Origin: an uncultured bacterium
GTDB lineage: Bacteria; Acidobacteriota; Thermoanaerobaculia; Multivoradales; JAHZIX01
Reading direction: 5' to 3'
NCBI GenBank assembly: GCA_965368975.1
Contig: CBDUPA010000007.1
Span: 96,001-160,000 of the forward strand
DNA length: 64,000 nt
A model generated the notes under the pieces. That model did not search any database. It saw only the letters and a program-made list of their open reading frames with translations, and was not told the origin of the DNA. The translations under genes were made by a program, and so were the position numbers. This document shows positions 425 to 24,772 of this stretch, in pieces; within the stretch, counting starts at the first letter, position 1, and each line of letters begins with the position of its first letter.

Positions 425-8764
<8,340 letters not shown>

Positions 8765-8920: not shown

Positions 8921-10348
8921 CTAGTGTGCGTTGTGCCAGATTCCCGAGCGCACCGTCATCCACAGAATTTTCACATCTAGGAACAGCGACCAGTTCTGGA
9001 TGTAGTACAGATCGTACTGGATGCGCTTCTTGAGCGACGTGTTGCCGCGCCAGCCGTGCACTTGCGCCCAGCCGGTGATGCCGGCCTTGACGCGATGCCG
9101 CATCATGTACTGCGGGATCTTGTGCTTGAACTCCTGCACGAACGCCGGGCGCTCCGGGCGGGGTCCGACGATCGACATATCGCCCTTGAGCACGTTCCAC
9201 AGCTGCGGCAGCTCATCGATCGACCACTCGCGCAAGAACGTGCCGAGACGCGTGCGCCGCGGGTCGCCCTTGACCGCCCACACCGGGCCGGTCGTCGACT
9301 CGGCGTCGATCCGCATCGAGCGGAACTTGTAGATCATGAAGCTCTTGCCATCCAGGCCCATGCGCTCTTGCTTGTAGAACACCGGTCCACGGTCCTCACG
9401 CCAGATCAGGAAGGCGAGCACCGGCAAGAACGGTGATAGGCCGAGAATGGCGGCCGCCGACAACGCCACGTCCATGGCGCGCTTCATCAGGCTGTACCAG
9501 CCTTGCAGCGGCACCTGCGACAGGTTGATCACCGGCGTGCCGTCGAGATTCTCGATCGCCGCGTTGAGCGTCGCGTATTGCAGGACGTCGGGCACGATGC
9601 GCACGTCGACACACTCGCGGCTCACGCGTTCGATGATACGCAGCATCTTCCGGTGCGCTTCCAGCGGCAGTGCGATGAACACCTGGTCGATCGGCTGCTC
9701 GTCCAGCACTCGATCGATCTCCTTGAGACTGCCGAGCACCGGTACGCCATGGAAACGCGCCTGGGACTTGCCAGGATCGTCGTCGACGAAGCCGATCACT
9801 TCGAAGCCGTATTCCTGGTGGTTGAGGATCTTCTGCGTCACTTCCTGGCCCAACTGGCCAGCGCCGACGACCAAGATCCGCTCGACACCCTCACCGCGGC
9901 TTCGCCGGCGGCGCAGCAGGGCACGCACGAAGAGGCGCGCGAGGGCGATCAAGAGCAGGTTCATGACCGCGAAGATGACCAGGAAGGCGCGGCTGAAGGT
10001 GACGTACTCGAGGCTGTCCGGGCCCACCGTCGGCCGGTACCAACCGGTGAACGCGAGCAACATCAGGTTGGCCAGCACCACTGCCGACACGATGCCGAGC
10101 ATTTCGTCCACCCGGCCGCGCGTGCGTCGGTTCTGGTAGAGGCCGTGGAAGTAGAAGACCAGCGGCCAAACCACGACCAGGAACGGCAACAGCATCAGGT
10201 ACGGGCCGATGCTCGGGACGGCTCGCGTGACGGGAATGATCTGCAGGTCGAAGCGTAGCGTCCAGGCGGCGAAAAACGCGGCCACGGTGGCGAGCAGGTC
10301 GGCAATGAGATAGAGAGAGAAGGTCTTCCGATGGCTTTGATGGATCAC
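8921..10348 (-). CDS. Undecaprenyl-phosphate glucose phosphotransferase (WcaJ-type priming glycosyltransferase)
   Basis: N-terminal TM helices, Rossmann-like GAGQLG, KFRSM, DELPQLWNVLKGDMSIVGPRPER, GITGWAQV, YDLYYI. Confidence 0.93.
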   Translation of the reverse strand: MIHQSHRKTFSLYLIADLLATVAAFFAAWTLRFDLQIIPVTRAVPSIGPYLMLLPFLVVVWPLVFYFHGLYQNRRTRGRVDEMLGIVSAVVLANLMLLAFTGWYRPTVGPDSLEYVTFSRAFLVIFAVMNLLLIALARLFVRALLRRRRSRGEGVERILVVGAGQLGQEVTQKILNHQEYGFEVIGFVDDDPGKSQARFHGVPVLGSLKEIDRVLDEQPIDQVFIALPLEAHRKMLRIIERVSRECVDVRIVPDVLQYATLNAAIENLDGTPVINLSQVPLQGWYSLMKRAMDVALSAAAILGLSPFLPVLAFLIWREDRGPVFYKQERMGLDGKSFMIYKFRSMRIDAESTTGPVWAVKGDPRRTRLGTFLREWSIDELPQLWNVLKGDMSIVGPRPERPAFVQEFKHKIPQYMMRHRVKAGITGWAQVHGWRGNTSLKKRIQYDLYYIQNWSLFLDVKILWMTVRSGIWHNAH

Positions 10349-10408
10349 GAAGCGGACCTCTTCCAGGCGGCAGACTCCTGGTCGTTTTGCTCGGTAGCAC
10401 AGCCCGAG

Positions 10409-11653
10409 CTACAGGTTCTGAGCGCGCGACAAACCTTCGGAAATGGATGACCAAATGAGACGACGAAAGCGAGGAGCGGAGAAGTCCTCCGCGCGAGAAC
10501 GAAGGTTCAAGATATTGAACTGGATTTCGCCGAGTTTGTCAATTGCTGCCCTCAGCGCTGCTTCGTGAGCCATCGCGTCTACTTCCGTCGCAGCCGTGCC
10601 GACGTCGTTCCTTGCCGCCTCCGGCGGCGGCTCGTAGAGCACACCGTGGACTCCGGATTTGACGATGTCCAGGACCCCGCCGCGTCCGCGTGCCACCACC
10701 GGCGTGCCGCAGGCCAGCGCCTCCACGGGGGCGATCCCGAAGTCCTCGACCCCCGGCTGCAGCAGGCAGCGCGCGCCCTGGTACAAGCGCCGCAGGTCGT
10801 CCCCATCGACGCGCCCCAGGAACCGCGTGTTCGACCCCGCCAGCCGCCGCAGCCGTGCCTCTTCCGGCCCGGTGCCGACGATGCGTAGCGGCACCCCCAA
10901 GCTCTCGCACGCGCGGATCGCCACGTCGAGCCGCTTGTAGGGTGCCAGCGCCGCGACGATGAGGCAGTAGCTGTTCGCCGCGTCAGGATCTTCCGAGGGT
11001 TGGAAGAAGTCCACGTCCACCGGCGGATGCACCACCTCGGCTTCACGCCGGTAGTAACGGCGCACCCGCTCGGCGACGAAACGCGAGTTCGCCAGGTACA
11101 GATCCACCCGTCGACTCGACGTCACGTCCCACGCCCGCAGCGCGCTCAAGATCAGCGCCCGCACCCGTGCCACCAGGCCCGTGCGGCGCGGAAAGTACTG
11201 CCGTTCCTGATCCCAGGCGTAGCGCATCGGCGTATGGATGTAGCAGGCGTGGAACGATCCGGGGGGCGACAAGACGCCCTTGGCCACGCAGTGGCTGGAG
11301 CTGACCACCAGGTCGTGCCCGTCCTGGTCGGGCCCGACCAGATCGAGATCCTCGGCGGCGGCCGGATAGAAGGGGAGGTAGTGCCGGTACCAGCGCCGCA
11401 GTCCCGGTGCCTTTTGCAGGAAACTCGTGTGGATCGAGTGACGTTCGAGCGTCTCGCTGACGCTGCCCGGGAAATGGAAGAGCGTGTAGATCGGTGCCGT
11501 CGGGAAGAGCACCGCCAGCTCTTCCAACACCTTCTCGCCGCCGCGCATCCCGGTCAGCCAGTCGTGCACCAGCGCCGGTCGTTGGACACCTGCGGCTGCG
11601 AGTCGAGCGAGCGCGTCCGAGTTGGAGTCAGCTGGGGGGGTATCGTTCTTCAA
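10409..11653 (-). CDS. GT4 family glycosyltransferase
   Basis: HDWLTGMRGGEKVL, HTPMRYAWD, EDFGIAPVEALACGTPV. Confidence 0.92.
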   Translation of the reverse strand: MKNDTPPADSNSDALARLAAAGVQRPALVHDWLTGMRGGEKVLEELAVLFPTAPIYTLFHFPGSVSETLERHSIHTSFLQKAPGLRRWYRHYLPFYPAAAEDLDLVGPDQDGHDLVVSSSHCVAKGVLSPPGSFHACYIHTPMRYAWDQERQYFPRRTGLVARVRALILSALRAWDVTSSRRVDLYLANSRFVAERVRRYYRREAEVVHPPVDVDFFQPSEDPDAANSYCLIVAALAPYKRLDVAIRACESLGVPLRIVGTGPEEARLRRLAGSNTRFLGRVDGDDLRRLYQGARCLLQPGVEDFGIAPVEALACGTPVVARGRGGVLDIVKSGVHGVLYEPPPEAARNDVGTAATEVDAMAHEAALRAAIDKLGEIQFNILNLRSRAEDFSAPRFRRLIWSSISEGLSRAQNL

Positions 11654-11754
11654 GGTCGAGGTATTTCAAGAGTGCCGAGAATGGTTCGAAATTTTGGACG
11701 TCCGAATTCAGATTTCCGGATTCGGGCCGAGGCTCTCGTCTTCCGGGGCCGTGC

Positions 11755-12957
11755 TCAGGAGCGCTTTCCCACGCTCGTGATTTCGCGCGCTCGTGCGCCC
11801 CCCGGCGGCCAGTGCAGCGCCTCGATCTTGCCCGGCGTCTTGCCGCGGAGCGCACTCATGTACGTCCGGAGCGTGCGCTCCGCCGTCTTCTCCCAGCGGA
11901 ACTCGTCCGCGCGCCGCAAGCCCATCTCCGCCAGCGACTCCCGGTGCTCCGCATCCGCCATACCCTGCGCGATCGCCTGCGCGATGCCCTGCACGTCGAG
12001 CGGATCAACCAGATGCCCATACCCCTTCGCCATCTCCTTCAGCGCCGACGTATTCGACGTGATCACCGGCACCCCCGACGCCATCGCCTCGATCACCGGC
12101 AGCCCGAAGCCCTCGTACAGCGTCGGGTAGAGGAACATCGTCGCCCCCTGGTACACCGCCGGCAGCGCCTCCTGCGCCACGTGCCCCAGGAGCTGCACCT
12201 TGTCCCCCACGCCCAGCTGCTCCGCGTGGCGCTTGATCCGCGCCTCCGCGTTGCCCCGGTCGCCCACGCACACCAGCGGCGCGTCGAAGCTGTGGATCTG
12301 CCGTGCTCGCGCATACGCTCGCAGCACGTTGTCGAGGTTCTTGTGCGGCTTCGGGTTGCCCACGAAGAGCAAGTACGGCGGCTTGATTCCCAGATTGCGC
12401 TGCCAGCGTGCCAGCTGCTCGTGCGTCAACCGCTCGCGGAAGCTATCGTCGACGCCGTTGTACACCACCTGGATCTTGCGTCCGGTGACGTCGAAGTACT
12501 TCATCAGGTCTTGCTTGGTCGTCTGCGACACCGCGATGATCCGATCACCGCGCGTCAGGGACCGCTTGATCATCGTGCGCGCGTACAGGAACGCCATGCG
12601 GCTGGGCAGGAACTGCGGATACAGCAAGTGGATGATGTCGTGGATCGTCACCACCACCCGCGACACGTTCACTAGCGGCAACACATAGTGCGTCGCGTGG
12701 TAGAGATCCAGCCGCATTCGATACTGCTTCCACGCCAGCTTCACCAACTCCCGCGCCGAATACACCGGCGCCTTCTCCGTCACCACTCGGAAGTTCTCCG
12801 GCAGACCCGCAAACGCGTCCTTCCGCTGCGGCCCAGCGAACAGCACGTACTGGTTTTCCTCGTCGATCTTCGCCAGTCCATGGACGAGGTGCCGGATGTA
12901 CGTCCCAATGCCGAAGTCGTGGACCTTGCGAGCGTCGATGCCGATGGTGTAGGTCAA
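11755..12957 (-). CDS. GT4 family glycosyltransferase
   Basis: GIGTY, TIHD, PHKN, YEGFGLPVIEAMASGVPV. Confidence 0.92.
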   Translation of the reverse strand: MTYTIGIDARKVHDFGIGTYIRHLVHGLAKIDEENQYVLFAGPQRKDAFAGLPENFRVVTEKAPVYSARELVKLAWKQYRMRLDLYHATHYVLPLVNVSRVVVTIHDIIHLLYPQFLPSRMAFLYARTMIKRSLTRGDRIIAVSQTTKQDLMKYFDVTGRKIQVVYNGVDDSFRERLTHEQLARWQRNLGIKPPYLLFVGNPKPHKNLDNVLRAYARARQIHSFDAPLVCVGDRGNAEARIKRHAEQLGVGDKVQLLGHVAQEALPAVYQGATMFLYPTLYEGFGLPVIEAMASGVPVITSNTSALKEMAKGYGHLVDPLDVQGIAQAIAQGMADAEHRESLAEMGLRRADEFRWEKTAERTLRTYMSALRGKTPGKIEALHWPPGGARAREITSVGKRS

Positions 12958-13193
12958 GGGATCTCCCGGGGGTGGGGGTGCGCGGTGGTTGTGTCAGGTG
13001 GATTGTATGACGAAGCGGGGTGTGCTGCGCCCGTAATCATTGGGTGGACTAGAATCATGTCTCTCACCCTGAGAATGATATCTATGAGGCAGCAATCGTG
13101 TTTCCTCGATGGCAACGGTCCGAATTATGACGTCATGGGATGTTTCGGACAGTGTTCTCAAGTTCCCTATGAAAATGGTGTCAGGAGGTTTAA

Positions 13194-14225
13194 GTGATGG
13201 AGCTGCAGATGGCGATTGAAAAATTCATGCATGGCTACTTTTCGACTTGCAGTAGGAGTGACAAGACAATTCGGGCCTATTCAGTCGATTTGCGACAGTT
13301 CATGGAGTTTCGTAATCCAACTACTGTACTGGAGGGTATTTGCTCTGGGGATCTAGAAGACTGGGCCTCCAGCCTGAAAGCAGAAGGATATTCTCCTGCA
13401 TCTATCCGGAGGAAGTTTGCTACGGTTAGGGTATTCTTCAGGTACTGGTTCCGAAAGAGGCAGCTCACAACCTCGCCATGTGTGGGCATTCGTTTAGATT
13501 TGGGGCGAAGAGTGAAGCTGCCGTCAGCTGTTTCCTATGAGTTTCTCTGCGATCTACTAGGCGTTGCCCGAGCTAGCGTCGTCGACACTGAGCTGGAGCA
13601 CCACTCTGGTAGGAGACTGTTCTTGGCAAAAAGAGATCTGTTGATAGTTGAGATTCTGGTAGCAACAGGTATTCGGATTGGTGAGTTAGCCAACATTTTG
13701 GTGGGGGATGTATCGACCCGAGACTTCTCTATAATTATCAATGGAAAAGGAGGACGGCAGCGAAAGGCGCTGTTGGTTAGAGCGCATTCCCGGGCGGCAT
13801 TGTTAGACTATTTGAGCTCAATAGATATGAACTCTGCAGGCCCGCTTTTCCTGAACCACCGAGGTGACGCACTTTCTTCTCAAGGAGCTGCTCAAGTTGT
13901 GACTCGCTTGTCCAGTCGATTGGGAGCAGGGAAGAGGATCACTCCTCATGTGATAAGGCACTCAATTGCGACGATTTTGCTGAGTCGGGGGGCGGATGTG
14001 CGAGTGATTCAGGTTTTTCTTGGGCACTCTTCAATTTTAACTACAGAAAAGTATCTGCATGTGAGTACAGGAGAGCTAGCCAAGCAGCTGGCGAAATATC
14101 AGCCAGAGTTTCCAGTGGATACGACACCGATAACTAGAAATTATCAACTCTGGAGTGTGTCGAGCCATGGATGTAGAGACAGAACTGGGACTGCAGCGAA
14201 TAGTGTTGATTGCCGACTGTGTTGA
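13194..14225 (+). CDS. XerC/D-like tyrosine recombinase
   Basis: N-terminal SAM-like domain (TIRAYSVDLRQF); catalytic residues in TGIRIGEL, GKGGRQR, HVIRH, LGHSS, TEKY; RBS AGGAGG upstream. Confidence 0.92.
   Translation: MMELQMAIEKFMHGYFSTCSRSDKTIRAYSVDLRQFMEFRNPTTVLEGICSGDLEDWASSLKAEGYSPASIRRKFATVRVFFRYWFRKRQLTTSPCVGIRLDLGRRVKLPSAVSYEFLCDLLGVARASVVDTELEHHSGRRLFLAKRDLLIVEILVATGIRIGELANILVGDVSTRDFSIIINGKGGRQRKALLVRAHSRAALLDYLSSIDMNSAGPLFLNHRGDALSSQGAAQVVTRLSSRLGAGKRITPHVIRHSIATILLSRGADVRVIQVFLGHSSILTTEKYLHVSTGELAKQLAKYQPEFPVDTTPITRNYQLWSVSSHGCRDRTGTAANSVDCRLC
14129..14145 (+). repeat. Putative recombination site, left copy: GATAACTAGAAATTATC
   Basis: Palindromic arms GATAA/TTATC around a 7-bp asymmetric core; exact reverse complement at 19795-19811. 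Confidence 0.8.
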
Positions 14226-15177
14226 AGTTGAGCCTGACCAGACTTCAAGTTTCTCGTCAGCCCTAGATCAGACAAGGTTGAGCGAGAATCTTGAGCTAAA
14301 GGAGGGATTGGAGGAACTTGGCGCGGATGTCATCGTAATCGAGGACCCAGGAGATTTTGCGCTCGCGCTTGACCAGTTTTCTGACTGGCTAGTTTTCCCG
14401 AACTGGATGGGAGAGCGATCGAGAAGTCGTGCAGGTCTGATACCGGCTATCTGTGAGGCAACGGGTACAAGGTATGTGGGAGCTGACGCCTACACGAGGA
14501 TCGTTTGCGGGGACAAGGTGCTGTCTAGAGTTCTGGCGAAGCAAGCTGGCTTCACTCTCCCAAAGCACTGCGTCTGCGCCTTGGGTATGACGATTGGGCC
14601 TTTATTTGACATCGAGCCACCGTATGTAGTGAAACCTTCTAGGCAGAATAGCTCGATTGGCATATCCACGAGAAGTCTCTGCTCTTCGGAGGAGTCTTGC
14701 AGAGAAGTGGTCGCAACTCTTCAGGAAGAGTTTCAGGAGCCCATACTGGTTGAGAAGTTCATTCCAGGGAAGGAGGTCAGTATAAGCATGACTGGGAATC
14801 CTTCGGGCACCACTTCGCTCGCTGCTTGTGAGCGTTACGTCATCGATGATGAGTTGTACTTTGAGTCAGCTTTGTTCTCGCTTGAGCTGAAGAAGTATAA
14901 GATGTTGGAAACTAGACTTAAGCCCAGGCCAGATCTATTGACTCCAGACACTGTCGCAGCGTGTGAGCGACTATTCCGCCTTCTAGGGTGCCCATCAATT
15001 CTGAGAATTGATGGCAGAGCGCCAACCGCGGATCAGTTAACTTTAATCGAAATATCTCCCAATCCGCTCATGACCATGAGTTCTGAGTATCTCGGTGCCT
15101 TCCTTCTCGACGGGAGAGCTCGCATTGATATCCTGCACGAGATCCTCTCTAATTCTCTGACCCGGTGGAGGCGCTGA
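14167..15177 (+). CDS. ATP-grasp ligase, D-Ala-D-Ala ligase-like (divergent)
   Basis: CGDKVLSR, VVKPSRQNSSIGIS, LVEKFIPGKEVS, RIDGR, LIEISPNP; start taken at ATG 14167 (ORF track starts at 14155). Confidence 0.8.
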   Translation: MDVETELGLQRIVLIADCVEVEPDQTSSFSSALDQTRLSENLELKEGLEELGADVIVIEDPGDFALALDQFSDWLVFPNWMGERSRSRAGLIPAICEATGTRYVGADAYTRIVCGDKVLSRVLAKQAGFTLPKHCVCALGMTIGPLFDIEPPYVVKPSRQNSSIGISTRSLCSSEESCREVVATLQEEFQEPILVEKFIPGKEVSISMTGNPSGTTSLAACERYVIDDELYFESALFSLELKKYKMLETRLKPRPDLLTPDTVAACERLFRLLGCPSILRIDGRAPTADQLTLIEISPNPLMTMSSEYLGAFLLDGRARIDILHEILSNSLTRWRR

Positions 15178-16679
15178 TGTGCGGAATTGCGGCCGTTTAT
15201 CCATCATGCAGGGAACTGATAGATGAGGTGCTCCCGCGACTTCGGGAGCGTGGCCCTGATCAGGACGCTGTATCTGATACAACTTTGGCTTCTCTTGGAG
15301 CCTCACGGTTAAAAATTACGGATATGGAAAGGGGAGATCAACCACTAGTAACTAGCTCGGGTAGCACGGTTATTATCTTCAATGGTGCCATTTATAATGC
15401 TTTCTATTTGAGGGAGGCTTTTAATCTTCAGACCCTGACTCAAAATGACGCCGAGGTAGTCGCTTGCTTGTATGAGGTGCTCGGAGATGAAGTAGTGAAC
15501 TACTTGGATGGTATGTATGCATTTATCATAGCTGATCTCAGGAGACAGCGGCTTGTTGCTGCAAATGATTCTTTTGGTATTAAACCCTTGCATTGGGCCC
15601 GGGCGGAGGGGCATCTGCTGTTCTCAAGTACTGTTAGCTCGTTGCCAGTCAATTTTCAGAAGACTGTAAGGCGCTTCCCTTCTGGTGTGCTTTGGGCGTC
15701 AGATGGCACAGTACGCAAGGTGGTGCCGTACCATGGCCAGAGTTGTGGTGAGCTAGTCGAAGAACTGCGACGAGCAGTTCGGTCGCAAGTACCAGCGGAG
15801 GTACCTTGGGGTTGCATGTTGAGTGGCGGTGTCGATAGTGCTTTGGTGACAGCAATGTGCACAGAGTTGCGAGGCTCCTCTGTGATTGCGTATACCGCTG
15901 GGACGCTGAAGAGCGATGACTTCAACGTAGCACGCAGGTTTGCGAAGTTTGTTGACTTGGATCATCGCCCTATTGTGATTGATCGTATGATGGTTGAGCA
16001 GGCAGTGGTTCAAGTCATAGAGGCCACTGCCAACTACGATCCACTAACTGTAATGAGTGGAGTTGGTACCCTACTCGTAGCGGATCAAGCGCGGCGAGAT
16101 GGCGTTAAGGTTCTGCTCTCGGGAGAGGGTGCTGATGAACTCTTTGGTGGCTACGATGTATATCAGAAGATTCCTACTAGAGATCTGAATAGTACTCTCT
16201 TGAGAGATCAGAGCGAGTTGGGAGCTACGGAGTGTCTTAGACTTGATCGTTGCACCGGCGCGTGTGGCATTGAGGCTCGCGTTCCATTCCTTTCTGCCGG
16301 AGTTGTTCAACTGTCTCGATCAATTGGTCCCCTAGATAAGATCTTGCCTACTGCGGATCGGCGGACCTTCAACAAAATTGCTTTGCGACGAGCCGCAGAA
16401 CTGTGTCTGCCCAACTGGGTTGCACACAGAGAGAAGGTGCCGTTCTTCGAAGGAGCAGGTCTATCGGGAATGGTTGCCGAGGTTGCTGAAAGTTGGCTTG
16501 AAAGAAGCAGCATTTCTAGATCTCAGGATGAACTCCGATGCTTTGGAGTTCACTCAACTGTGGCGAGATATCTCTTTGAACTCTGGTTCGAGAGGTTCGG
16601 GGAGATCACGACGAGTTTCGAAGACTTATGTATCCGTGGTCTAACGAGGAGGAATTACTTTCGGCCGAATGGCTTATGA
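15177..16679 (+). CDS. Asparagine synthetase B-like glutamine amidotransferase
   Basis: MCGI Ntn-nucleophile start, RGPD, FNGAIYN, GIKPL, LSGGVDS, SGEGADELFGGY, EARVPFL; TGATG overlap with the ATP-grasp stop. Confidence 0.9.
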   Translation: MCGIAAVYPSCRELIDEVLPRLRERGPDQDAVSDTTLASLGASRLKITDMERGDQPLVTSSGSTVIIFNGAIYNAFYLREAFNLQTLTQNDAEVVACLYEVLGDEVVNYLDGMYAFIIADLRRQRLVAANDSFGIKPLHWARAEGHLLFSSTVSSLPVNFQKTVRRFPSGVLWASDGTVRKVVPYHGQSCGELVEELRRAVRSQVPAEVPWGCMLSGGVDSALVTAMCTELRGSSVIAYTAGTLKSDDFNVARRFAKFVDLDHRPIVIDRMMVEQAVVQVIEATANYDPLTVMSGVGTLLVADQARRDGVKVLLSGEGADELFGGYDVYQKIPTRDLNSTLLRDQSELGATECLRLDRCTGACGIEARVPFLSAGVVQLSRSIGPLDKILPTADRRTFNKIALRRAAELCLPNWVAHREKVPFFEGAGLSGMVAEVAESWLERSSISRSQDELRCFGVHSTVARYLFELWFERFGEITTSFEDLCIRGLTRRNYFRPNGL

Positions 16680-19600
16680 AGGCGGGGGCGTCAGGCCGAT
16701 TGTCCAATAGCAGAGAAATGTAGGCTCAAACTGCGCAGGTACTTCATGGTGATAGCTGCTGTTGACGAAGTTATCTGAGTACAAGCGGTCATTCCATTCT
16801 TGTGACCAGAAGTTGATATCGATCTGCTGAGCGGCTCGCAGATTCTTCGCGGCCACTGCCTTGCTGTTCCTGAGTGAATAATATAAATAAAGATTATAAT
16901 GAGCGATGCGTCGAATTTCGAGGTCTTGTGGGTCTCTATCTGCCAAGATTCGCTCGATTACTGCCACCATTTCAGTCGCAGCTCTGTATCTCTCGCTTAT
17001 AGTGAAGAGGATTAGAGAATTCATGCTGATAATCAGGCGTGAGAACATGTCGGTTGCCGTCCGTCGAGCAGAGCGAAGCAGCGCTATTGCAGACTCTGGC
17101 TCTGATCCCATGTAGATAGCAATGGCTGCACGATTATTAAGAATGCAGTGTTCTTCGGATGGCAGCTCTTTCATGAGTCGCTCTGCTGTGTCTAGCTCGG
17201 CAAGGGCTTCTTGATGTTTGCCCATCTTGGATAGCTGTAGTGTTATGGAGACTCGGGTTCTGGCTTCTTCAAGTTGATCGCCGAGCTCATGGAAGATTTG
17301 AATGCTCTGACGCATGCATTCCGTAATCTCAGCATTACACCTTGTTGTGAGCTGCGCATTGCGTAGAAGGTGGGCATAGCTCCTGCAGTGGTGTATTCGA
17401 GGGTCTTCTCTGAGTTCCTTGAACAGGTCATCACAGTCAGCGTGGCTGTTTGTGCAACGGTACGCTGACAGAACAACGAGTTTGAGCCGGAGGTATAACT
17501 CTGGATCGTCTTCGATCTTGGGGAGATAGAGATCACAGAACTCGATGGCTTCTTGATGCCTGTGATCCCATACCAACAGGGCTGCGCGGTATTCTAGATA
17601 CCAGGAGGCTCTCAATTTGTCGAGGTCTGTGGCTACTCGCAGAGCCTCTTGGTATTGTCCAGCCATGAAATAAAGATATATGCAGAGACGATCCAGAGTT
17701 GTTTTCTGGTTCTCGGTTGCGGTCTGATAGGCGGTGTTACGGATCTTCTCGAGGTAAGTACAAAGTTGCCGAATAGAACGGTTAGCTAGTGCAAGTCTTG
17801 TGAGTTCATTAAGCAGCGGCAGAGCACGATATTCCTGGCCTAGGTTCATCAAGCAGACTAGAAGCATGACGATCTTGTCGGCGCGAGTTTGAAAAGAGAA
17901 CCTCTCTTCTTGCAGTTCTTGTTCGTAGATCTTCTTCCAGTGATCAAATGCAATTATTAGGTGACGGGAGAAGTCGTCACTGTCACGAGCATGCTGTAAG
18001 AGTTGATCTTGTGCAATCGAAACCTCAGTTCCATCATCAGACACAAGCCTCCGCTTCTGAAGTGTCAGAATTGTATCTTCTACATCTAGAATCTCGACCG
18101 CAGTACCTTCTAGGTCTTCGTATAGGGTGTTTAGGTGAGACCAAGGTACGATGCCACCGTGTGAGACAATCAAGGCGAATAAGAACTTTTGCTGCTCTGA
18201 TAGCGTAGTGAGGTTATCAAGAGTGATTGCCTCGAAGGATTGTTCGGCAAGTCCACGGACGTAGTCTGTATCGGGCGCGCCTCGCAGCTCTAAGGCAACT
18301 TCGAGATCTATGAATGGCCTCAGGTTTCCCTCTGACTCCTGATAAGATCTTCGCACGAACAAGTCGATGGCACCTTCCCTCTTGCGGAGGATTTTCATCG
18401 CGTGATCCACCTGGAGCTTGCCGAGCTTGAGCGTTTGCACTATTACTGAGGCGACCGCGAAGGCTGATTCTAACTGTGTTAAATCCCAGCCATTCGGATC
18501 ATCTTCTGTCAGCTCTAATAGAAGATAGATTCCTCTAGGAGATTGGAGGAGCCGTGAAAAGAAATCAAGTGAGTAGTCATCTAGGTTCTGTGCGTTCTCC
18601 ACGCAGATGACCATCGGGAGTTTACCGGAGCAATGCAGAATGTAACTCTCAAGAAGGGGGAGATCACGTTCTCCAAGTCTGGCAAGTTCATGCCAGAAGG
18701 TGGAGGGCGTAAACTCTGCGGGCTGAGGGAAATCCTGTCGCTGCGAGAGTCTTCTACTTGCGATGTGTGACTGAAAGGAAGGAATCTGTCCAGGAAAAGT
18801 TGCGGCCGAGAGGTGAATTCGGTGTGCGAGAACACGCATGTAGAAAGATTCTTCCCGGTAGTCCCGGGCATGCTGCGGGATTGCCAATCGAACATAGAGT
18901 TGCTGAGGTGAATGTTGGCGATTCTTGAGTTCGCTAAAAACCCTCTCTGTTAGCGCACTCTTACCCACGCCGCTCGGAGCATGTAGAAGCAGAGCTTTGT
19001 TTTGGTATTCTGTAGCGAGTATATCTGTGCACAAGGCTGAGATCTCTGCTGACCGATTTACGAAGTGTGATGCTTTAACTGAAGCAGGCACCTGCCGTTG
19101 GTCGACATCTTTGGGTAAATACGTGAACTCGCGATATTCATCATGGTCCCGAGGGGCTTGATCCGACTTATCTAAGTCACTTGAAGCGAGAACTTCATCC
19201 GCATGAACCGGTCCGGTGTCGAATCGCCTCTGGAATAGAACTGGTGTATGTTGTGCCGGTGAGTGCTCCATATGCAGTGCATTACAGGCGATACTGTAAG
19301 AGTCTGGAATGCTCTCGCCTGCACCGACAGCATCATAGAATGCAACGGAGAAGGTTATTGCAGCAGAGTCCGGAATCTCTTTGCCCATTCCGATGACAAA
19401 ATCTACATGTTTCGCTAGATACTCTGCCTGAATGCGAGAGAAGCAAGCGTTGAGGAGAATGCACTGGATTGATTTAGAAGTGATTCTAAAAAAATGGCCT
19501 AGAGCGTGATTATCTACAGGACGAGAGTGCCCTTTACCGTCGAGAAGATGTAACCCTCCTTTGCCAGAACCGTGGCCAGAGAAATGGATGAAATGAGGAC

Positions 19601-19790
19601 GGAACCTCAGGACTAGCCGCCGAAGGTCCCTTATTTGTGTGGCTGGGTGATGCTCGATAATAAACGAGTGCTGACTAGCGGAAAGGCCGGTTCGGATCTC
19701 TTCAGCTTCCTGAGCAAGTTGAAGACTCGCAGAATCTATTGCATTTGCTGCGAGGATTAGGAGGCGCCGAGATTCTGCGGGCCCGTTCAC
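16674..19790 (-). CDS. CHAT (caspase-like) protease + P-loop NTPase (STAND-like) + helical/TPR-like protein
   Basis: HFSGHG and LNACFS (His/Cys dyad); Walker A APSGVGKS; Walker B-like ICVENAQ; long helical C-terminus; GTG start. Confidence 0.8.
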   Translation of the reverse strand: MNGPAESRRLLILAANAIDSASLQLAQEAEEIRTGLSASQHSFIIEHHPATQIRDLRRLVLRFRPHFIHFSGHGSGKGGLHLLDGKGHSRPVDNHALGHFFRITSKSIQCILLNACFSRIQAEYLAKHVDFVIGMGKEIPDSAAITFSVAFYDAVGAGESIPDSYSIACNALHMEHSPAQHTPVLFQRRFDTGPVHADEVLASSDLDKSDQAPRDHDEYREFTYLPKDVDQRQVPASVKASHFVNRSAEISALCTDILATEYQNKALLLHAPSGVGKSALTERVFSELKNRQHSPQQLYVRLAIPQHARDYREESFYMRVLAHRIHLSAATFPGQIPSFQSHIASRRLSQRQDFPQPAEFTPSTFWHELARLGERDLPLLESYILHCSGKLPMVICVENAQNLDDYSLDFFSRLLQSPRGIYLLLELTEDDPNGWDLTQLESAFAVASVIVQTLKLGKLQVDHAMKILRKREGAIDLFVRRSYQESEGNLRPFIDLEVALELRGAPDTDYVRGLAEQSFEAITLDNLTTLSEQQKFLFALIVSHGGIVPWSHLNTLYEDLEGTAVEILDVEDTILTLQKRRLVSDDGTEVSIAQDQLLQHARDSDDFSRHLIIAFDHWKKIYEQELQEERFSFQTRADKIVMLLVCLMNLGQEYRALPLLNELTRLALANRSIRQLCTYLEKIRNTAYQTATENQKTTLDRLCIYLYFMAGQYQEALRVATDLDKLRASWYLEYRAALLVWDHRHQEAIEFCDLYLPKIEDDPELYLRLKLVVLSAYRCTNSHADCDDLFKELREDPRIHHCRSYAHLLRNAQLTTRCNAEITECMRQSIQIFHELGDQLEEARTRVSITLQLSKMGKHQEALAELDTAERLMKELPSEEHCILNNRAAIAIYMGSEPESAIALLRSARRTATDMFSRLIISMNSLILFTISERYRAATEMVAVIERILADRDPQDLEIRRIAHYNLYLYYSLRNSKAVAAKNLRAAQQIDINFWSQEWNDRLYSDNFVNSSYHHEVPAQFEPTFLCYWTIGLTPPPS

Positions 19791-19794
19791 TATC

Positions 19795-19811
19795 GATAAT
19801 TTCTAGTTATC
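19795..19811 (-). repeat. Putative recombination site, right (inverted) copy
   Basis: GATAATTTCTAGTTATC is the exact reverse complement of 14129-14145; lies 4 bp upstream of the CHAT gene GTG. Confidence 0.8.
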
Positions 19812-19824
19812 ATTGCTGCCTGGT

Positions 19825-19854
19825 AGGCTAGCATGGTGGTAATGGGTAGTGCAA
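19825..19854 (-). promoter_or_regulatory. Putative sigma70-type promoter pointing into the invertible segment
   Basis: Minus strand TTGCAC-N18-TAGCCT with an extended -10 TG; imperfect match found by eye. Confidence 0.35.
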
Positions 19855-20045
19855 CTGCGGATTTGCCACAGGTTCTTTACTTCCTTTTCCTGCAGAGAAA
19901 TTTTGTCCCAGGCGGTTCAAGATTCCCAGCCACCAGGCATCCTTTGAGTTGCCGCTAACGTATCCTAAATTCGACCCCTGTCGCGACGCCCACCCGCGTC
20001 GCGACACCAACCAAGGCTGGCCACCACCGTCTAGGAGCCGACCCG

Positions 20046-21533: not shown

Positions 21534-21676
21534 GGCACCCCGAGCCGTGCTAGTAAAGCGGCAGCGAAGATGATGTATCCTTAGCGCGCTGCACGGGCGG
21601 GACGCCAGCCCGCGCGCACTCATTCGACGGGCTCCCGTCGGACTCAAACCCCAAGACCAAGACAGGAGGACAACGT

Positions 21677-22225
21677 ATGCGTACGTTCAAGCTGCTCTCC
21701 ATTTTCGCTCTCGCCGCGCTCGTCTCGCTCGCCGTGCCGGCGGCGGCCGACGACAACGAGCTGTCGTTCAAGGCCAACAACCAGGTGTACAACGCCAATG
21801 GCACGTTCAAGAACTTCGAGTTCACCAGTGTCGACATCCCGGGCGGTGACCTGACCCAGGGCACGGTCGAGATGAAGATTGACCTCAACTCGGTGGACGA
21901 GAAGAGCCCGGATCTGGCCGAGCATCTGCGCCAGCCGGACTTCTTCGACGTGGTCAAGTTCCCGGCCGCGACGGTGAAGGTGCACGGCATCACCAAGACC
22001 GGGGACAACACCTATGACGCCACCGCGACGGTCAACTTCATGGGTACCTCCAACGACGTGCCGGTGAGCTTCACCGTGGTGTCCGAGGATCCGTTGCGCA
22101 TTGAGGGCAGTGGCACCATGAATCGCCTGGACTTCGGCCTGGGGCAGGCCCACGACCCCGAGAACAAGTACTCGATCGTGCCGCAGGTCGAGATCAGCCT
22201 GAAGGCGACTCTCCCGACGAGCTGA
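21677..22225 (+). CDS. YceI family lipid/polyisoprenoid-binding protein
   Basis: Signal peptide, IDLNSVD, HLRQPDFFDVVKFP, NRLDFGLG. Confidence 0.88.
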   Translation: MRTFKLLSIFALAALVSLAVPAAADDNELSFKANNQVYNANGTFKNFEFTSVDIPGGDLTQGTVEMKIDLNSVDEKSPDLAEHLRQPDFFDVVKFPAATVKVHGITKTGDNTYDATATVNFMGTSNDVPVSFTVVSEDPLRIEGSGTMNRLDFGLGQAHDPENKYSIVPQVEISLKATLPTS

Positions 22226-22231
22226 GGCGAC

Positions 22232-22287
22232 GGCGCTTCTGACGAGGCGCTTCTGAAGAGGCACTTCTGACGAGGCGCTTCTGAAGA
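22232..22287. repeat. Four 14-bp tandem repeats GGC(G/A)CTTCTGA(C/A)GA
   Basis: Read directly between the YceI stop and the terminator. Confidence 0.85.
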
Positions 22288-22291
22288 CTAG

Positions 22292-22324
22292 AACGGCCGG
22301 TCCTGCGGGGCTCGGCCGTTTTTT
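22292..22324 (+). terminator. Rho-independent terminator
   Basis: AACGGCCG...CGGCCGTT hairpin followed by a T run. Confidence 0.75.
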
Positions 22325-22381
22325 CATGTCTGGATTTCGGATGAGGAGTTTTGTTGTCGATGCTGGCTGTGTCCAAAGGGC

Positions 22382-24772
22382 ATGGACAGCAAGAATGACC
22401 TCCCGAAAACGCCGGCCGTTTCCCTTTGGGGAACTCTCTGGCGCGACCCCCGCCATTATCAGATCACCATCCTCGGGACCCTCAGTCTCTACGGCTTGGG
22501 CAGTCTGGGTTTCGTCGTGCCGCCGGCGCAGGCGTTGACGCTGATCGTGACGGCCTTGGTGACGCAGTGGGCCTTCTCACGCTGGCGCGGTATCGCGCTG
22601 GATGTCCGCAGTCCGCTGATCTCGTCACTGTCGCTGTGTCTGCTGTTGCGCAGTCCGTCCATGACGCTGGCGGCGCTGGCGGCGTTCGTCACGATCGCGG
22701 GCAAGTTCTTGATCCGGCGGCGAGGCAAGCACGTCTTCAATCCGACCAATCTCGGTCTGGTGGTGATGCTCGGCGCGGCGTTGCTGCTGCGCGCGTGGTG
22801 GCCATCGCTGGGTGGCGTCTGGGTGTCGCCGGGGCAGTGGGGCAGTACCGCCTTTGTGGGCTTCTTCCTGGCCTGTCTGGGTGCGCTGGTGCTCTACCGA
22901 GCGGCGCGCGCGGACGTCAGCCTGGGCTTTCTCGGCGCGTATGCGGCGCTGTGCTGTGGCCGCGCGCTGTGGTTGGGCGATCCGTGGTCGATTCCGCTGC
23001 ACCAGCTACAGAACGGCTCACTGCTGATCTTCACCTTCTTCATGATCTCGGACCCCAAGACGACGCCCGACTCGCGCGCCGGCCGGCTGCTGTTCGCAGC
23101 GCTGGTGGCGGTGGGGGCTGCTTGGGTGCAGTTCGGGCTGTACCAGCCCAACGGACCGCTGTGGGCGCTGGCCGCGCTGGCGCCGACGGTGCCGTTGCTC
23201 GACCGTCTACTGCCGGGGCAGCGCTACCGCTGGCCCGGCCTACCAGCAACCACTCCGTCTCGACTCACTCTGACTGGACTCACTCAGAACCAAGGAGGAC
23301 AGACTATGTCTTCTCTCTCGTCTCCGCGATGCCGCTTGCGCCGTTCCGCCCTGCAGGGCGGAGTCCCGCGTCTCTTTCTCGCCTTGCTGCTGCCGCTGCT
23401 CCTGGTGTCGCTGCTGTTGCCTGCGGGCTCGGCGTCCGCCTTCTGCGGCTTCTACGTCGCCAAGGCGGACACGAAGCTGTTCAACCGAGCCTCGAAGGTC
23501 GTACTGGTACGCGACGGTGATCGCACGGTGATGACGATGGCCAATGACTACCAGGGCGACCTGTCCGAGTTCGCGGTCGTGATCCCGGTGCCGACGTTCC
23601 TCGAACGCGAGCAGATCCACGTTGCCGACAACGCGTTGATCGAACACCTGGACGCCTACACGGCGCCGCGCCTGGTCGAGTACTTCGACGACAACCCTTG
23701 CGGCCGCTACGAGATGGAGGCGGCGATGCCGTCTGCGGTGATGCGCCAGGACATGGCTGCCGAGGGCAAATCGCTCGAAAGGGCGCGCAGCCTGGGCGTG
23801 ACGATCGAGGCACAGTACGACGTCGGTGAGTACGACATCCTGATCCTGTCGGCCGAGGAGAGCACCGGCTTGGTGACCTGGCTGACCGAGAGTGGTTACC
23901 GTTTGCCTGAGGGTGCTGAGCCGGTGGTCGGCAGTTACTTGAAGCAGGGCGTTCGTTTCTTCGTCGCCAAGGTCGACTTGAGTGAGCAGGCGAAGCTGGG
24001 GTACAGCTACCTGCGGCCGCTGCAGGTAGCCTTCGAGACGCCCAAGTTCATGCTGCCGATCCGCCTGGGGACGGTGAACGCTGAGGGCCCGCAGGAGCTC
24101 TTCGTCTTCGCGCTGACCCGCCGCGGTCGGGTGGAGACGACGAACTACCGTACGGTGCGCCTACCGACAGGGCAGGAGATCCCGACCTATGTCAAGAATG
24201 ACTTCGGCGACTTCTACCGCGACATGTTTAGCCAGCAAGTGGAGAAGGAGAACATGCGCGCGGTGTTCTTGGAGTACGCCTGGGACATGGCCTGGTGCGA
24301 TCCCTGCGCCGCCGATCCGCTGAGCCAGAGCGAGCTGCGCGAGCTGGGTGTCTTCTGGCTCGACGGTGGTCCGACTGTGGGCCCAACTGGGGGCCCGACT
24401 GTGGGCCCAACTGGGGGCCGGCAGGTGCAGCCCTCGGGGCCGCAGAACGTCTTCGTGACGCGGCTGCACGTGCGCTACGACGCTGCGCACTTCCCGGAGG
24501 ATCTGTTCTTCCAGCAGACGGGGGACAGGACCAACTTCCAGGGCCGTTATGTGCTACGCCATGCTTGGACCGGCAACGATCGCTGCCCGGCGGCGCAGGA
24601 GTACTTCCGGCAACTCGCCGATCGTCGCGAGCAGGAGGCCAAGACGCTGGCCAGCCTGACCGGCTGGAATGTCAATGACATTCGCGGACGGATGGGGGAG
24701 GTGCCGGGTGCTGGCAGTCCCGAGCCGGCGGCGGACGAAGTGCCGTGGTGGAAGCGGATCTGGCCGGGCTGA
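22382..24772 (+). CDS. RnfD/NqrB-like membrane domain in frame with a DUF2330-like protein (internal RBS and ATG at 23306)
   Basis: RDPRHYQI, KHVFNPTN, FFMISDPKTTP; then signal peptide + AFCGFYVAKAD, PRLVEYFD, EYAWD..WCDPC. Confidence 0.75.
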   Translation: MDSKNDLPKTPAVSLWGTLWRDPRHYQITILGTLSLYGLGSLGFVVPPAQALTLIVTALVTQWAFSRWRGIALDVRSPLISSLSLCLLLRSPSMTLAALAAFVTIAGKFLIRRRGKHVFNPTNLGLVVMLGAALLLRAWWPSLGGVWVSPGQWGSTAFVGFFLACLGALVLYRAARADVSLGFLGAYAALCCGRALWLGDPWSIPLHQLQNGSLLIFTFFMISDPKTTPDSRAGRLLFAALVAVGAAWVQFGLYQPNGPLWALAALAPTVPLLDRLLPGQRYRWPGLPATTPSRLTLTGLTQNQGGQTMSSLSSPRCRLRRSALQGGVPRLFLALLLPLLLVSLLLPAGSASAFCGFYVAKADTKLFNRASKVVLVRDGDRTVMTMANDYQGDLSEFAVVIPVPTFLEREQIHVADNALIEHLDAYTAPRLVEYFDDNPCGRYEMEAAMPSAVMRQDMAAEGKSLERARSLGVTIEAQYDVGEYDILILSAEESTGLVTWLTESGYRLPEGAEPVVGSYLKQGVRFFVAKVDLSEQAKLGYSYLRPLQVAFETPKFMLPIRLGTVNAEGPQELFVFALTRRGRVETTNYRTVRLPTGQEIPTYVKNDFGDFYRDMFSQQVEKENMRAVFLEYAWDMAWCDPCAADPLSQSELRELGVFWLDGGPTVGPTGGPTVGPTGGRQVQPSGPQNVFVTRLHVRYDAAHFPEDLFFQQTGDRTNFQGRYVLRHAWTGNDRCPAAQEYFRQLADRREQEAKTLASLTGWNVNDIRGRMGEVPGAGSPEPAADEVPWWKRIWPG
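24365..24418 (+). repeat. 24-bp in-frame tandem duplication (GGPTVGPT x2)
   Basis: ccgactgtgggcccaactggggg occurs twice. Confidence 0.75.

Follow-up and report, generated by a model that had tools for sequence, protein, structure and literature searches.

What does a tyrosine recombinase do with two short inverted sites that enclose a pair of opposed operons? The question is raised by a 64,000-nt stretch of contig CBDUPA010000007.1 from an uncultured acidobacterium, referred to here as the window, in which the gene for a XerD-like recombinase is followed by a 5.65-kb segment bounded by inverted copies of one 17-mer. The segment holds two convergent units, one encoding an ATP-grasp enzyme and an AsnB-type amidotransferase (unit A) and the other a CHAT-STAND-TPR protein (unit B). 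A reading of the window made earlier from its letters alone (the sequence-only reading) had claimed that the recombinase flips the segment between the sites. Comparison with related loci indicates that the locus is most probably an inversion and cassette-exchange module of a tyrosine recombinase, and that it belongs to a recurring and apparently undescribed family.

The site pair and its recombinase

The 17-mer GATAACTAGAAATTATC is found at positions 14129-14145 on the plus strand (the proximal site) and, as its exact reverse complement, at 19795-19811 on the minus strand (the distal site), with both copies directed into the cassette. The window has no further match when up to two mismatches are allowed, and in the whole genome (7,125,974 bases, 65.4% guanine plus cytosine, GC) no other place comes within three mismatches of the motif. 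A repeat search returned the same pair as a 17-nt inverted repeat, 100% complementary, with 5649 nt between its arms, and the identity of the two copies ends exactly at the limits of the 17-mer. None of 100 dinucleotide shuffles contained a match, and chance was rejected as the origin of the pair on the strength of the shuffles, the genome-wide count, and the control patterns described below. The exact inverted repeat reported in the sequence-only reading is thus borne out, as is its placement in the 3' end of the recombinase gene, 21 nt ahead of an ATG on one side and 4 nt ahead of the GTG of the CHAT gene on the other. Each site can be written GATAAC-TAGAAA-TTAT(C), with TAGAAA as the centre at both. 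The proximal site lies within the recombinase open reading frame (ORF), 24 nt past the last conserved residue, and is separated from the start of unit A by 9 nt if translation begins at GTG 14155 or by 21 nt if it begins at ATG 14167; the distal site ends ahead of GTG 19790. The possibility that the element acts as an RNA hairpin was rejected, with the RNA of the window 17-mer giving a minimum free energy of 0.0 kcal/mol.

The recombinase is encoded on the plus strand at 13194..14225, with a start at GTG 13194 or ATG 13197, and has 343 residues. It exceeds the Pfam cut-offs for the Phage_integrase domain (PF00589, 107.4 bits against 27.1) and for the N-terminal SAM-like domain (PF02899, 49.9 bits against 22.3), and the nearest solved structure is Escherichia coli XerD (1a0p, E 2.6e-25). 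Its conserved core extends to P304 (~14105), and the ~39 residues after it are an unconserved tail, whose codons span the proximal site. The protein falls short of the models for named groups of the superfamily: the XerC and XerD equivalogs (TIGR02224, 191.1 against 335.15; TIGR02225, 190.7 against 329.6), the integron integrases (TIGR02249, 74.9 against 265), and the FimB/FimE-type invertases (NF007370 and NF007371, 45.4 against 221 and 42.5 against 222). The catalytic residues of tyrosine recombinases follow the pattern R-K-H-R-H/W-Y. In an alignment of 38 sequences that includes the window protein, R161, K185, H252, R255, H278, and Y287 are invariant, and by this measure all six catalytic residues of the window recombinase are intact. 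The genome holds 13 other tyrosine-recombinase matches, the best of them 35% identical, and no close paralogue; no close relative of the recombinase was found in 40 related genomes, and a contig scan with this single sequence gave only one partial match of no relevance (L009, 46% over 61 residues). Its position beside the sites and its intact catalytic residues suggest that this protein is the catalyst that acts on them.

Identical centres and inversion among related loci

A clade profile built from 38 relatives of the window recombinase separates this group from ordinary Xer proteins, which score at most 263 bits. The window protein scores 405.9 bits, and 3 of 400 other genomes of the same phylum encode proteins that score 375-394 bits (the unpublished genomes G189 and G088 enter the analysis only in this tally). 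The nearest relatives are 40-48% identical to the window protein, have 310-330 residues, and end soon after a conserved HP motif. In all three of the high-scoring genomes, the gene is adjoined by an inward-facing pair of GATAAC-N6-TTAT sites placed around convergent genes. Site pairs were found in five more genomes, including G006, which belongs to the same order as the window's genome. The G006 recombinase is 45% identical to that of the window and has the same arrangement at its 3' side, with the recombinase followed by a site, enzymes, a convergent CHAT protein, and the second site.

A scan of metagenomes gave 548 relatives, from which the best 80 loci, totalling 635,930 nt, were kept. The pattern GATAAC-N6-TTAT occurs 80 times in this sequence, compared with 0, 1, and 1 times for three control patterns of the same composition; the pattern is strict, and the site counts are lower bounds. 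Forty-nine loci have enough flanking sequence to be judged (at least 450 nt upstream and at least 250 nt downstream of the recombinase), and 40 of them have a site within 500 nt on the 5' side or 300 nt on the 3' side, with the site on the 5' side only in 23, on the 3' side only in 14, on both sides in 3, and on neither in 9. The window locus itself shows all three features of the family, namely a recombinase of the clade, an inward-facing pair with identical centres, and convergent units that start inside the sites. The recombinase-site design recurs in DNA from ~31% to ~65% GC, which suggests a wide host range; locus L097 has 31% GC, compared with the window and the G006 locus (L124) in hosts of 62-65% GC.

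One indication that these are recombination sites comes from their centres. Tyrosine recombinases require identical overlap regions in the two sites that they join, and operators do not. When consecutive sites 0.8-8 kb apart were listed without bias, the two 6-nt centres proved identical in every inward-facing pair (22/22), with 35 distinct centres among 93 sites and a probability of 0.057 that two random sites match. The other 12 consecutive pairs either span a recombinase or neighbouring cassettes or are inverted with one arm mismatched or the orientation ambiguous, and no consecutive pair is a direct repeat with a common centre. Genome G415 has two cassettes side by side with different centres (G415:C31 48378-54545; L040, L128), and five loci have cassettes on both sides of the recombinase (L049, L052, L060, L090, and L109). 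These arrays suggest that the centre keeps neighbouring cassettes independent.

Inversion itself can be read from two metagenomic records, L068 and L069, which are 99.87-99.97% identical over ~13 kb. Their outer flanks agree at 100 of 100 positions on each side, while the 3.8-kb cassette enclosed by the sites is in precisely the opposite orientation, so that the inner left end of one matches the inner right end of the other, 100/100 both ways. At the level of sequence records, the comparison proves an exact inversion event at the sites. In both, the cassette lies 3' of the recombinase as it does in the window, with an O-methyltransferase gene at one end and, at the other, genes for a NACHT NTPase and an FGE-like enzyme. 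Two further pairs of loci have homologous cassettes that face opposite ways with respect to the recombinase, namely L106 and L111 (82% nucleotide identity over 3617 nt, with the match ending at the sites) and L075 and L080. At four contig ends, the distal end of the cassette runs into the proximal flank in reverse complement, as in a flipped junction (matches of 39/40 in L062, 44/45 in L063, 53/53 in L084, and 21/21 in G369:C430), and five contigs terminate precisely at a site (L053, L077, L086, L101, and G198:C16). The homologues, with their site pairs, shared centres, and reversed records, support the proposal that the segment between the sites is flipped by the recombinase, and by extension we infer that the window's own copy flips as well. 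In most loci of the clade with enough flank, the site is kept beside the recombinase (its centre differing between loci), and the cargo varies to the point that unrelated cassettes occupy syntenic platforms.

Alignment of the sites shows where exchange may take place. Positions 1-6 (GATAAC, sometimes GATAAT) and 13-16 (TTAT) are fixed, in part because the search pattern itself imposes them, while positions 7-12 vary and are rich in purines, as in TAGGAA, AGAGAA, AAGGAG, and TAGAAA. Conservation is weak over the six bases on the outer side of the site and absent on its inner side. Position 1 remains with the outer flank in L068 and L069, and, in comparisons of cassettes lying in either orientation, position 17 travels with the cassette gene; exchange would therefore fall within the 16-mer. 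An inward-directed ORF of at least 60 codons begins within 60 nt of 51 of 52 site ends, and 40 of those 51 start between -3 and +10 nt from the end of the site, which would put the purine-rich centre at the Shine-Dalgarno position of the gene that follows, a feature that the sequence-only reading did not note. In L052, the inverted repeat (1420-1448 and 3782-3810) runs 12 nt into both cassette genes, and both genes therefore open with the same four codons.

Together, these features can be accommodated in the following mechanism. The XerD-like recombinase would bind and pair the two inverted 16-17-bp sites GATAAC-N6-TTAT(C), in which the arms form a short imperfect palindrome and crossover probably takes place in the 6-nt purine-rich centre. 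Strand exchange across this centre would flip the 5.65-kb cassette, and the centre would double as the Shine-Dalgarno sequence for the gene that starts a few bases inward. On flipping, the two convergent and apparently promoterless units would trade fixed upstream contexts, one supplied by read-through from the recombinase gene and the other by the 234-bp distal intergenic region. The ATP-grasp/AsnB operon would thereby move to the distal flank and the CHAT-STAND gene to a place behind the recombinase, the unconserved tail of which would be shortened. Over evolutionary time, the same sites would permit replacement of the whole cassette, amounting to a natural double-site cassette exchange. The consequence of flipping for the cell could be alternate expression of the two units, a change in their ratio, or no change.

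Proposed cassette replacement, cargo, and competing explanations

Exchange of whole cassettes, a point absent from the sequence-only reading, is suggested by loci in which platform and cargo have separate histories. L089 and L090 carry unrelated cassettes, yet their recombinases and proximal flanks match (79% identity, with the match starting exactly at the site), as do the genes past their distal flanks (64-70%). In L096 and L097, identity is 89% as far as the site, past which the sequences are unrelated. The cargo proteins of L106 and L111 are 86-88% identical, compared with 64% for their recombinases, and their cassettes are equal in GC content (0.552 and 0.557) where the recombinase genes are unequal (0.513 and 0.611). 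The same cargo type recurs in L046 in the other arrangement and with a recombinase that is only 30% identical. In G006, the GC content is 0.541 in the cassette, 0.647 in the recombinase gene, and 0.652 in the flanks, with a change that is abrupt at the proximal site and more gradual ~250 nt past the distal site. In the remaining pairs that were compared, similarity of the cargo does not exceed that of the recombinase; exchange would therefore be occasional.

The cassettes usually follow a common plan. At one end are tailoring enzymes, with an ATP-grasp enzyme in seven loci and, across the family, AsnB, carbamoyltransferase, sulfotransferase, aminotransferases, methyltransferases, a TauD-type dioxygenase, GNAT, UbiA, CDP-alcohol phosphatidyltransferase, KAS III, and radical SAM enzymes. 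At the other end is a STAND NTPase that combines a CHAT, SIR2, Mrr-like, or NACHT module with TPR or WD40 repeats, or, in some loci, a pentapeptide-repeat protein or a protein of ~315-350 residues with no Pfam match. This domain content points to a possible link between the cargo and defence. An ATP-grasp enzyme is paired with a STAND NTPase in at least five loci, which suggests that the two units work together. Proteins with no Pfam match are encoded at L065 8889-9836, L075 1241-2269, L050 2786-3805, L115 11620-12627, and L066 650-1708, among others, and the N-terminal region of the L128 protein includes a hydrophobic stretch. For two of these proteins, a search of a protein atlas gave unnamed clusters only, plus a weak lead to RcgA, which was dropped (rank 23, 20% of members, with the RcgA papers concerned with rhizobial plasmid transfer). 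In L124 (G006:C15), an AsnB-type gene at 4643-6331 lies just upstream of the recombinase and outside the cassette, and its product is 29% identical to the AsnB-type protein of the window, which is encoded within the cassette.

In the window, unit A begins with the ATP-grasp gene (14155..15177, plus strand). Its product has a D-Ala-D-Ala-ligase-like C-terminal domain (PF07478, 56.4 bits with a cut-off of 24), the only match that passes, with the NCBIfam Ddl model reaching 72.7 against the required 245.65. The second gene (15165..16679, plus strand) encodes a glutamine-dependent amidotransferase of the asparagine-synthase type (PF00733, 180.3 bits; PF13537, 104.1 bits) that passes TIGR01536 (285.1 against 267.1) and misses the AsnB equivalog NF006949 (309.2 against 499). 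Its true start is likely to be ATG 15177, which gives the sequence MCG... with the catalytic cysteine at the N terminus; this ATG overlaps the stop codon of the ATP-grasp gene, suggesting translational coupling. Unit B (16674..19790, minus strand) is a single gene for a protein of 1038 residues with an N-terminal caspase-like CHAT domain, a STAND-type P-loop NTPase (AAA_16, 37.9 bits), and C-terminal TPR-like repeats (TPR_12, 19.2 bits). The CHAT score of 22.9 bits is just below the Pfam cut-off of 24, and a CHAT-domain chain in the Protein Data Bank (8tl0) matches residues 8-185 with E 5e-13. The protein resembles antiviral STAND proteins of the Avs type at the level of domains only. The PADLOC defence models assigned none of the four proteins (recombinase, ATP-grasp, AsnB, and CHAT) to a family, and no close CHAT-STAND homologue was found in the 40 related genomes.

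Several observations weigh against a mechanism based on inversion. L068 and L069 are two records, each in a single orientation, and they give neither a rate nor evidence of reversibility. The chimeric contig ends could instead reflect longer inverted repeats at those four loci. The nine loci that lack a site by the strict pattern belong to the same clade, and the conserved arms, with only 5-6 bp on the inner side, are short for the binding elements of tyrosine recombinases. The recurrent pairing of ATP-grasp and STAND genes fits poorly with either/or expression. In the window, no sigma-70-like promoter match is found in the region upstream of the recombinase (12958..13193) or, directed toward the cassette, in the distal flank (19812..20045), and an island of 49% GC in a genome of 65% GC may be a recent import that is silent in its host.

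One alternative is that the main role of the sites is the capture and exchange of genes, in the manner of an integron with two ends. The platform would then supply two inward promoters and ribosome-binding sites, cassettes would enter either way round through double-site exchange, both units would be expressed in either orientation, and inversion would be a neutral by-product. Unrelated cassettes on syntenic platforms with homology that ends at the site, the presence of one cassette type on recombinases only 30% identical and in different arrangements, and the GC steps near the sites in G006 are all in keeping with this explanation. ATP-grasp and STAND pairs that are kept across platforms would be expected if both units must be expressed, and most distal flanks are gaps of 100-450 nt beside a divergent neighbour, which leaves room for a promoter. 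Set against this are the exact inversion in records that are 99.9% identical, from which it follows that flipping in place occurs, the lack of any observed donor form (a plasmid or circle with two sites), and the inability of an inverted pair to excise a cassette. We hold capture and exchange as the main role to be possible but on the unlikely side.

Another explanation concerns the window's genome alone, where the module could be an inert recent import whose sites are identical merely because they are young and which undergoes no recombination in its host. The low-GC island extends from ~13000 to ~19900, with a GC content of ~0.46-0.53 compared with 0.62-0.70 around it, and comprises the recombinase, the cassette, and ~100 nt of the distal flank. 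All of these are at ~49% GC in a genome of 65.4%, so the whole platform appears to have been imported. At its left edge, in the intergenic region 12958..13193, the GC content falls from ~0.62 to 0.46-0.50 near 13000; this region presumably contains the recombinase promoter, and an AGGAGG Shine-Dalgarno sequence lies at 13177-13182. At its right, the 234-nt distal flank (19812..20045) is of low GC content up to ~19900 and is followed by a divergent YceI-like gene; this flank would provide a promoter and 5' leader to whichever unit faces it. The absence of close relatives of the recombinase and the CHAT protein from the 40 genomes, the lack of a match to the YceI-like neighbour in five other genomes of the window's family, and flanks with no promoter-like match all accord with an inert import. 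However, all of the module's ORFs and the catalytic residues are intact, both sites are perfect, and the promoter and terminator scan, which gave 4 promoter-like matches compared with 6.2 expected and none usefully placed, covered the sigma-70 consensus only. Inspection of the proximal flanks of the family loci gave no common promoter motif; L089 and L090 have in common a TTGACA-17-TAACAA element ~140 nt from the site. An inert module seems improbable to us.

Finally, the 17-mers might be palindromic operators or elements of translational control, one at the 5' end of each of two co-regulated units, merely bound by a recombinase-like protein or another factor, as their palindromic arms (common among operators) and their position directly ahead of start codons with a Shine-Dalgarno-like purine run would allow, but centres that are identical within every inward pair and yet differ between loci, a demand that no operator makes, together with the exact inversion in L068/L069, the breaks in homology between loci at the sites, the retention of every catalytic residue in the partner protein, and the lack of a stable RNA fold, make this very improbable indeed.

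Described systems and the genomic surroundings

An inversion and exchange module of this kind has partial counterparts among known systems. The closest family in sequence is XerC/XerD-dif, and the plan of the site is alike, with palindromic arms around a 6-nt centre; unlike dif, which is a single site, the sites of the family form inverted pairs around cargo and have GATAAC/TTATC arms in place of the 11-bp dif arms. In the SusC/SusD and capsule regions of Bacteroides, the vsa and hsd loci of Mycoplasma pulmonis, the R64 shufflon (Rci), and the fim locus of E. coli (FimB/FimE), tyrosine recombinases flip DNA at adjoining inverted repeats and so vary expression or the 3' ends of genes. These systems flip promoters or gene segments, whereas the segment in the window consists of whole convergent operons from start codon to start codon. 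In integrons, a platform with the integrase IntI expresses promoterless, exchangeable, and highly variable cassettes, each of which has one folded attC site, is excised as a circle, and is stacked in one direction. The family described here resembles integrons in having a recombinase platform with promoterless, exchangeable, and variable cassettes, and differs from them in that the cassette has two inverted duplex sites and two convergent units and is not excised. In engineered cassette exchange with inverted lox or FRT sites, a segment is flipped, or swapped for another with matching sites, and the spacer sets compatibility. This is a laboratory design to which the window family may be a natural counterpart, with exchange deduced from comparison only.

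Full-text literature searches returned no description of this family of recombinases, sites, and cassettes, in agreement with the remark in the sequence-only reading that no described system with this layout was known. Among the cases that we compared, the nearest by its logic is the mba locus and UU172 element of Ureaplasma parvum, for which the available part of the report describes XerC-mediated inversion at short inverted repeats with alternate expression of two opposed genes (PMC3599477). Both systems combine a Xer-type tyrosine recombinase with inversion at short inverted repeats. In contrast to the 16-17-bp sites of the window, the mba repeats are of at least 24 bp, differ in sequence, and lie in or near the 5' coding parts of the genes. 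The mba cargo consists of surface antigens, and the portion of the report that was available does not present the recombinase as a dedicated neighbour, nor does it give evidence of cassette replacement or of a site-borne Shine-Dalgarno sequence, both of which are proposed for the window family. According to its available text, a systematic survey of gene-altering inversions considered repeats of at least 22 bp with one repeat within a coding sequence (PMC9881135); the sites described here are below this length, and the filter would therefore miss the family, which would account for its having escaped notice. A large study of NTP-dependent conflict systems, searched by term, contains the word "recombinase" once, in its reference list, and the terms "inversion", "inverted repeat", and "integrase" not at all (PMC7159879).

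Programmed inversion by a tyrosine recombinase is therefore known, and the new property is possibly the natural double-site cassette exchange. We judge the chances to be even that the family represents a widespread and undescribed platform of soil-type bacteria, in which a dedicated Xer-like recombinase can both invert bidirectional cassettes that lack promoters and swap them, at sites that include a ribosome-binding site, the centre acts as an address, and natural cassette exchange maintains an integron-like library in which STAND NTPase immune genes are coupled to small-molecule tailoring enzymes. If so, this would be a new and apparently common way to vary and trade sets of genes by means of tiny sites that double as ribosome-binding sites. 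It would also tie STAND/NLR-like immune proteins (CHAT, SIR2, Mrr, and NACHT) and their paired tailoring enzymes to programmed DNA rearrangement, a link that is not reported in the defence literature that was searched. With their many natural centre variants, the sets of recombinases and sites could serve as an orthogonal toolbox for inversion and cassette exchange.

The surroundings of the island were also inspected. An interpretation of the site pair as the attL and attR ends of an excisable island was rejected, with the sites inverted and the recombinase outside them, and the boundary regions of the island have no common direct repeat of at least 9 nt. Some 100 nt ahead of the recombinase gene, at 13087-13096, lies the 10-mer AGGCAGCAAT, whose reverse complement occupies 19812-19821 and directly abuts the outer side of the distal site; between two regions of 300 nt, ~0.17 matches of this kind would be expected, and the 10-mer could be left over from an outer half-site or from the arrival of the island. 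To the left, the minus strand of 8921-12957 encodes a sugar transferase (Bac_transf) and two group-1 glycosyltransferases, which places the island at the edge of a polysaccharide-synthesis locus, and a very long ORF (2779 codons) occupies 425-8764 on the same strand. To the right, a 14-nt unit (GGCGCTTCTGACGA and variants) occurs four times in tandem at 22232-22287, just upstream of ATG 22382, the start of an ORF of 796 codons, and partly within a minus-strand ORF of 270 codons at 21644-22456.

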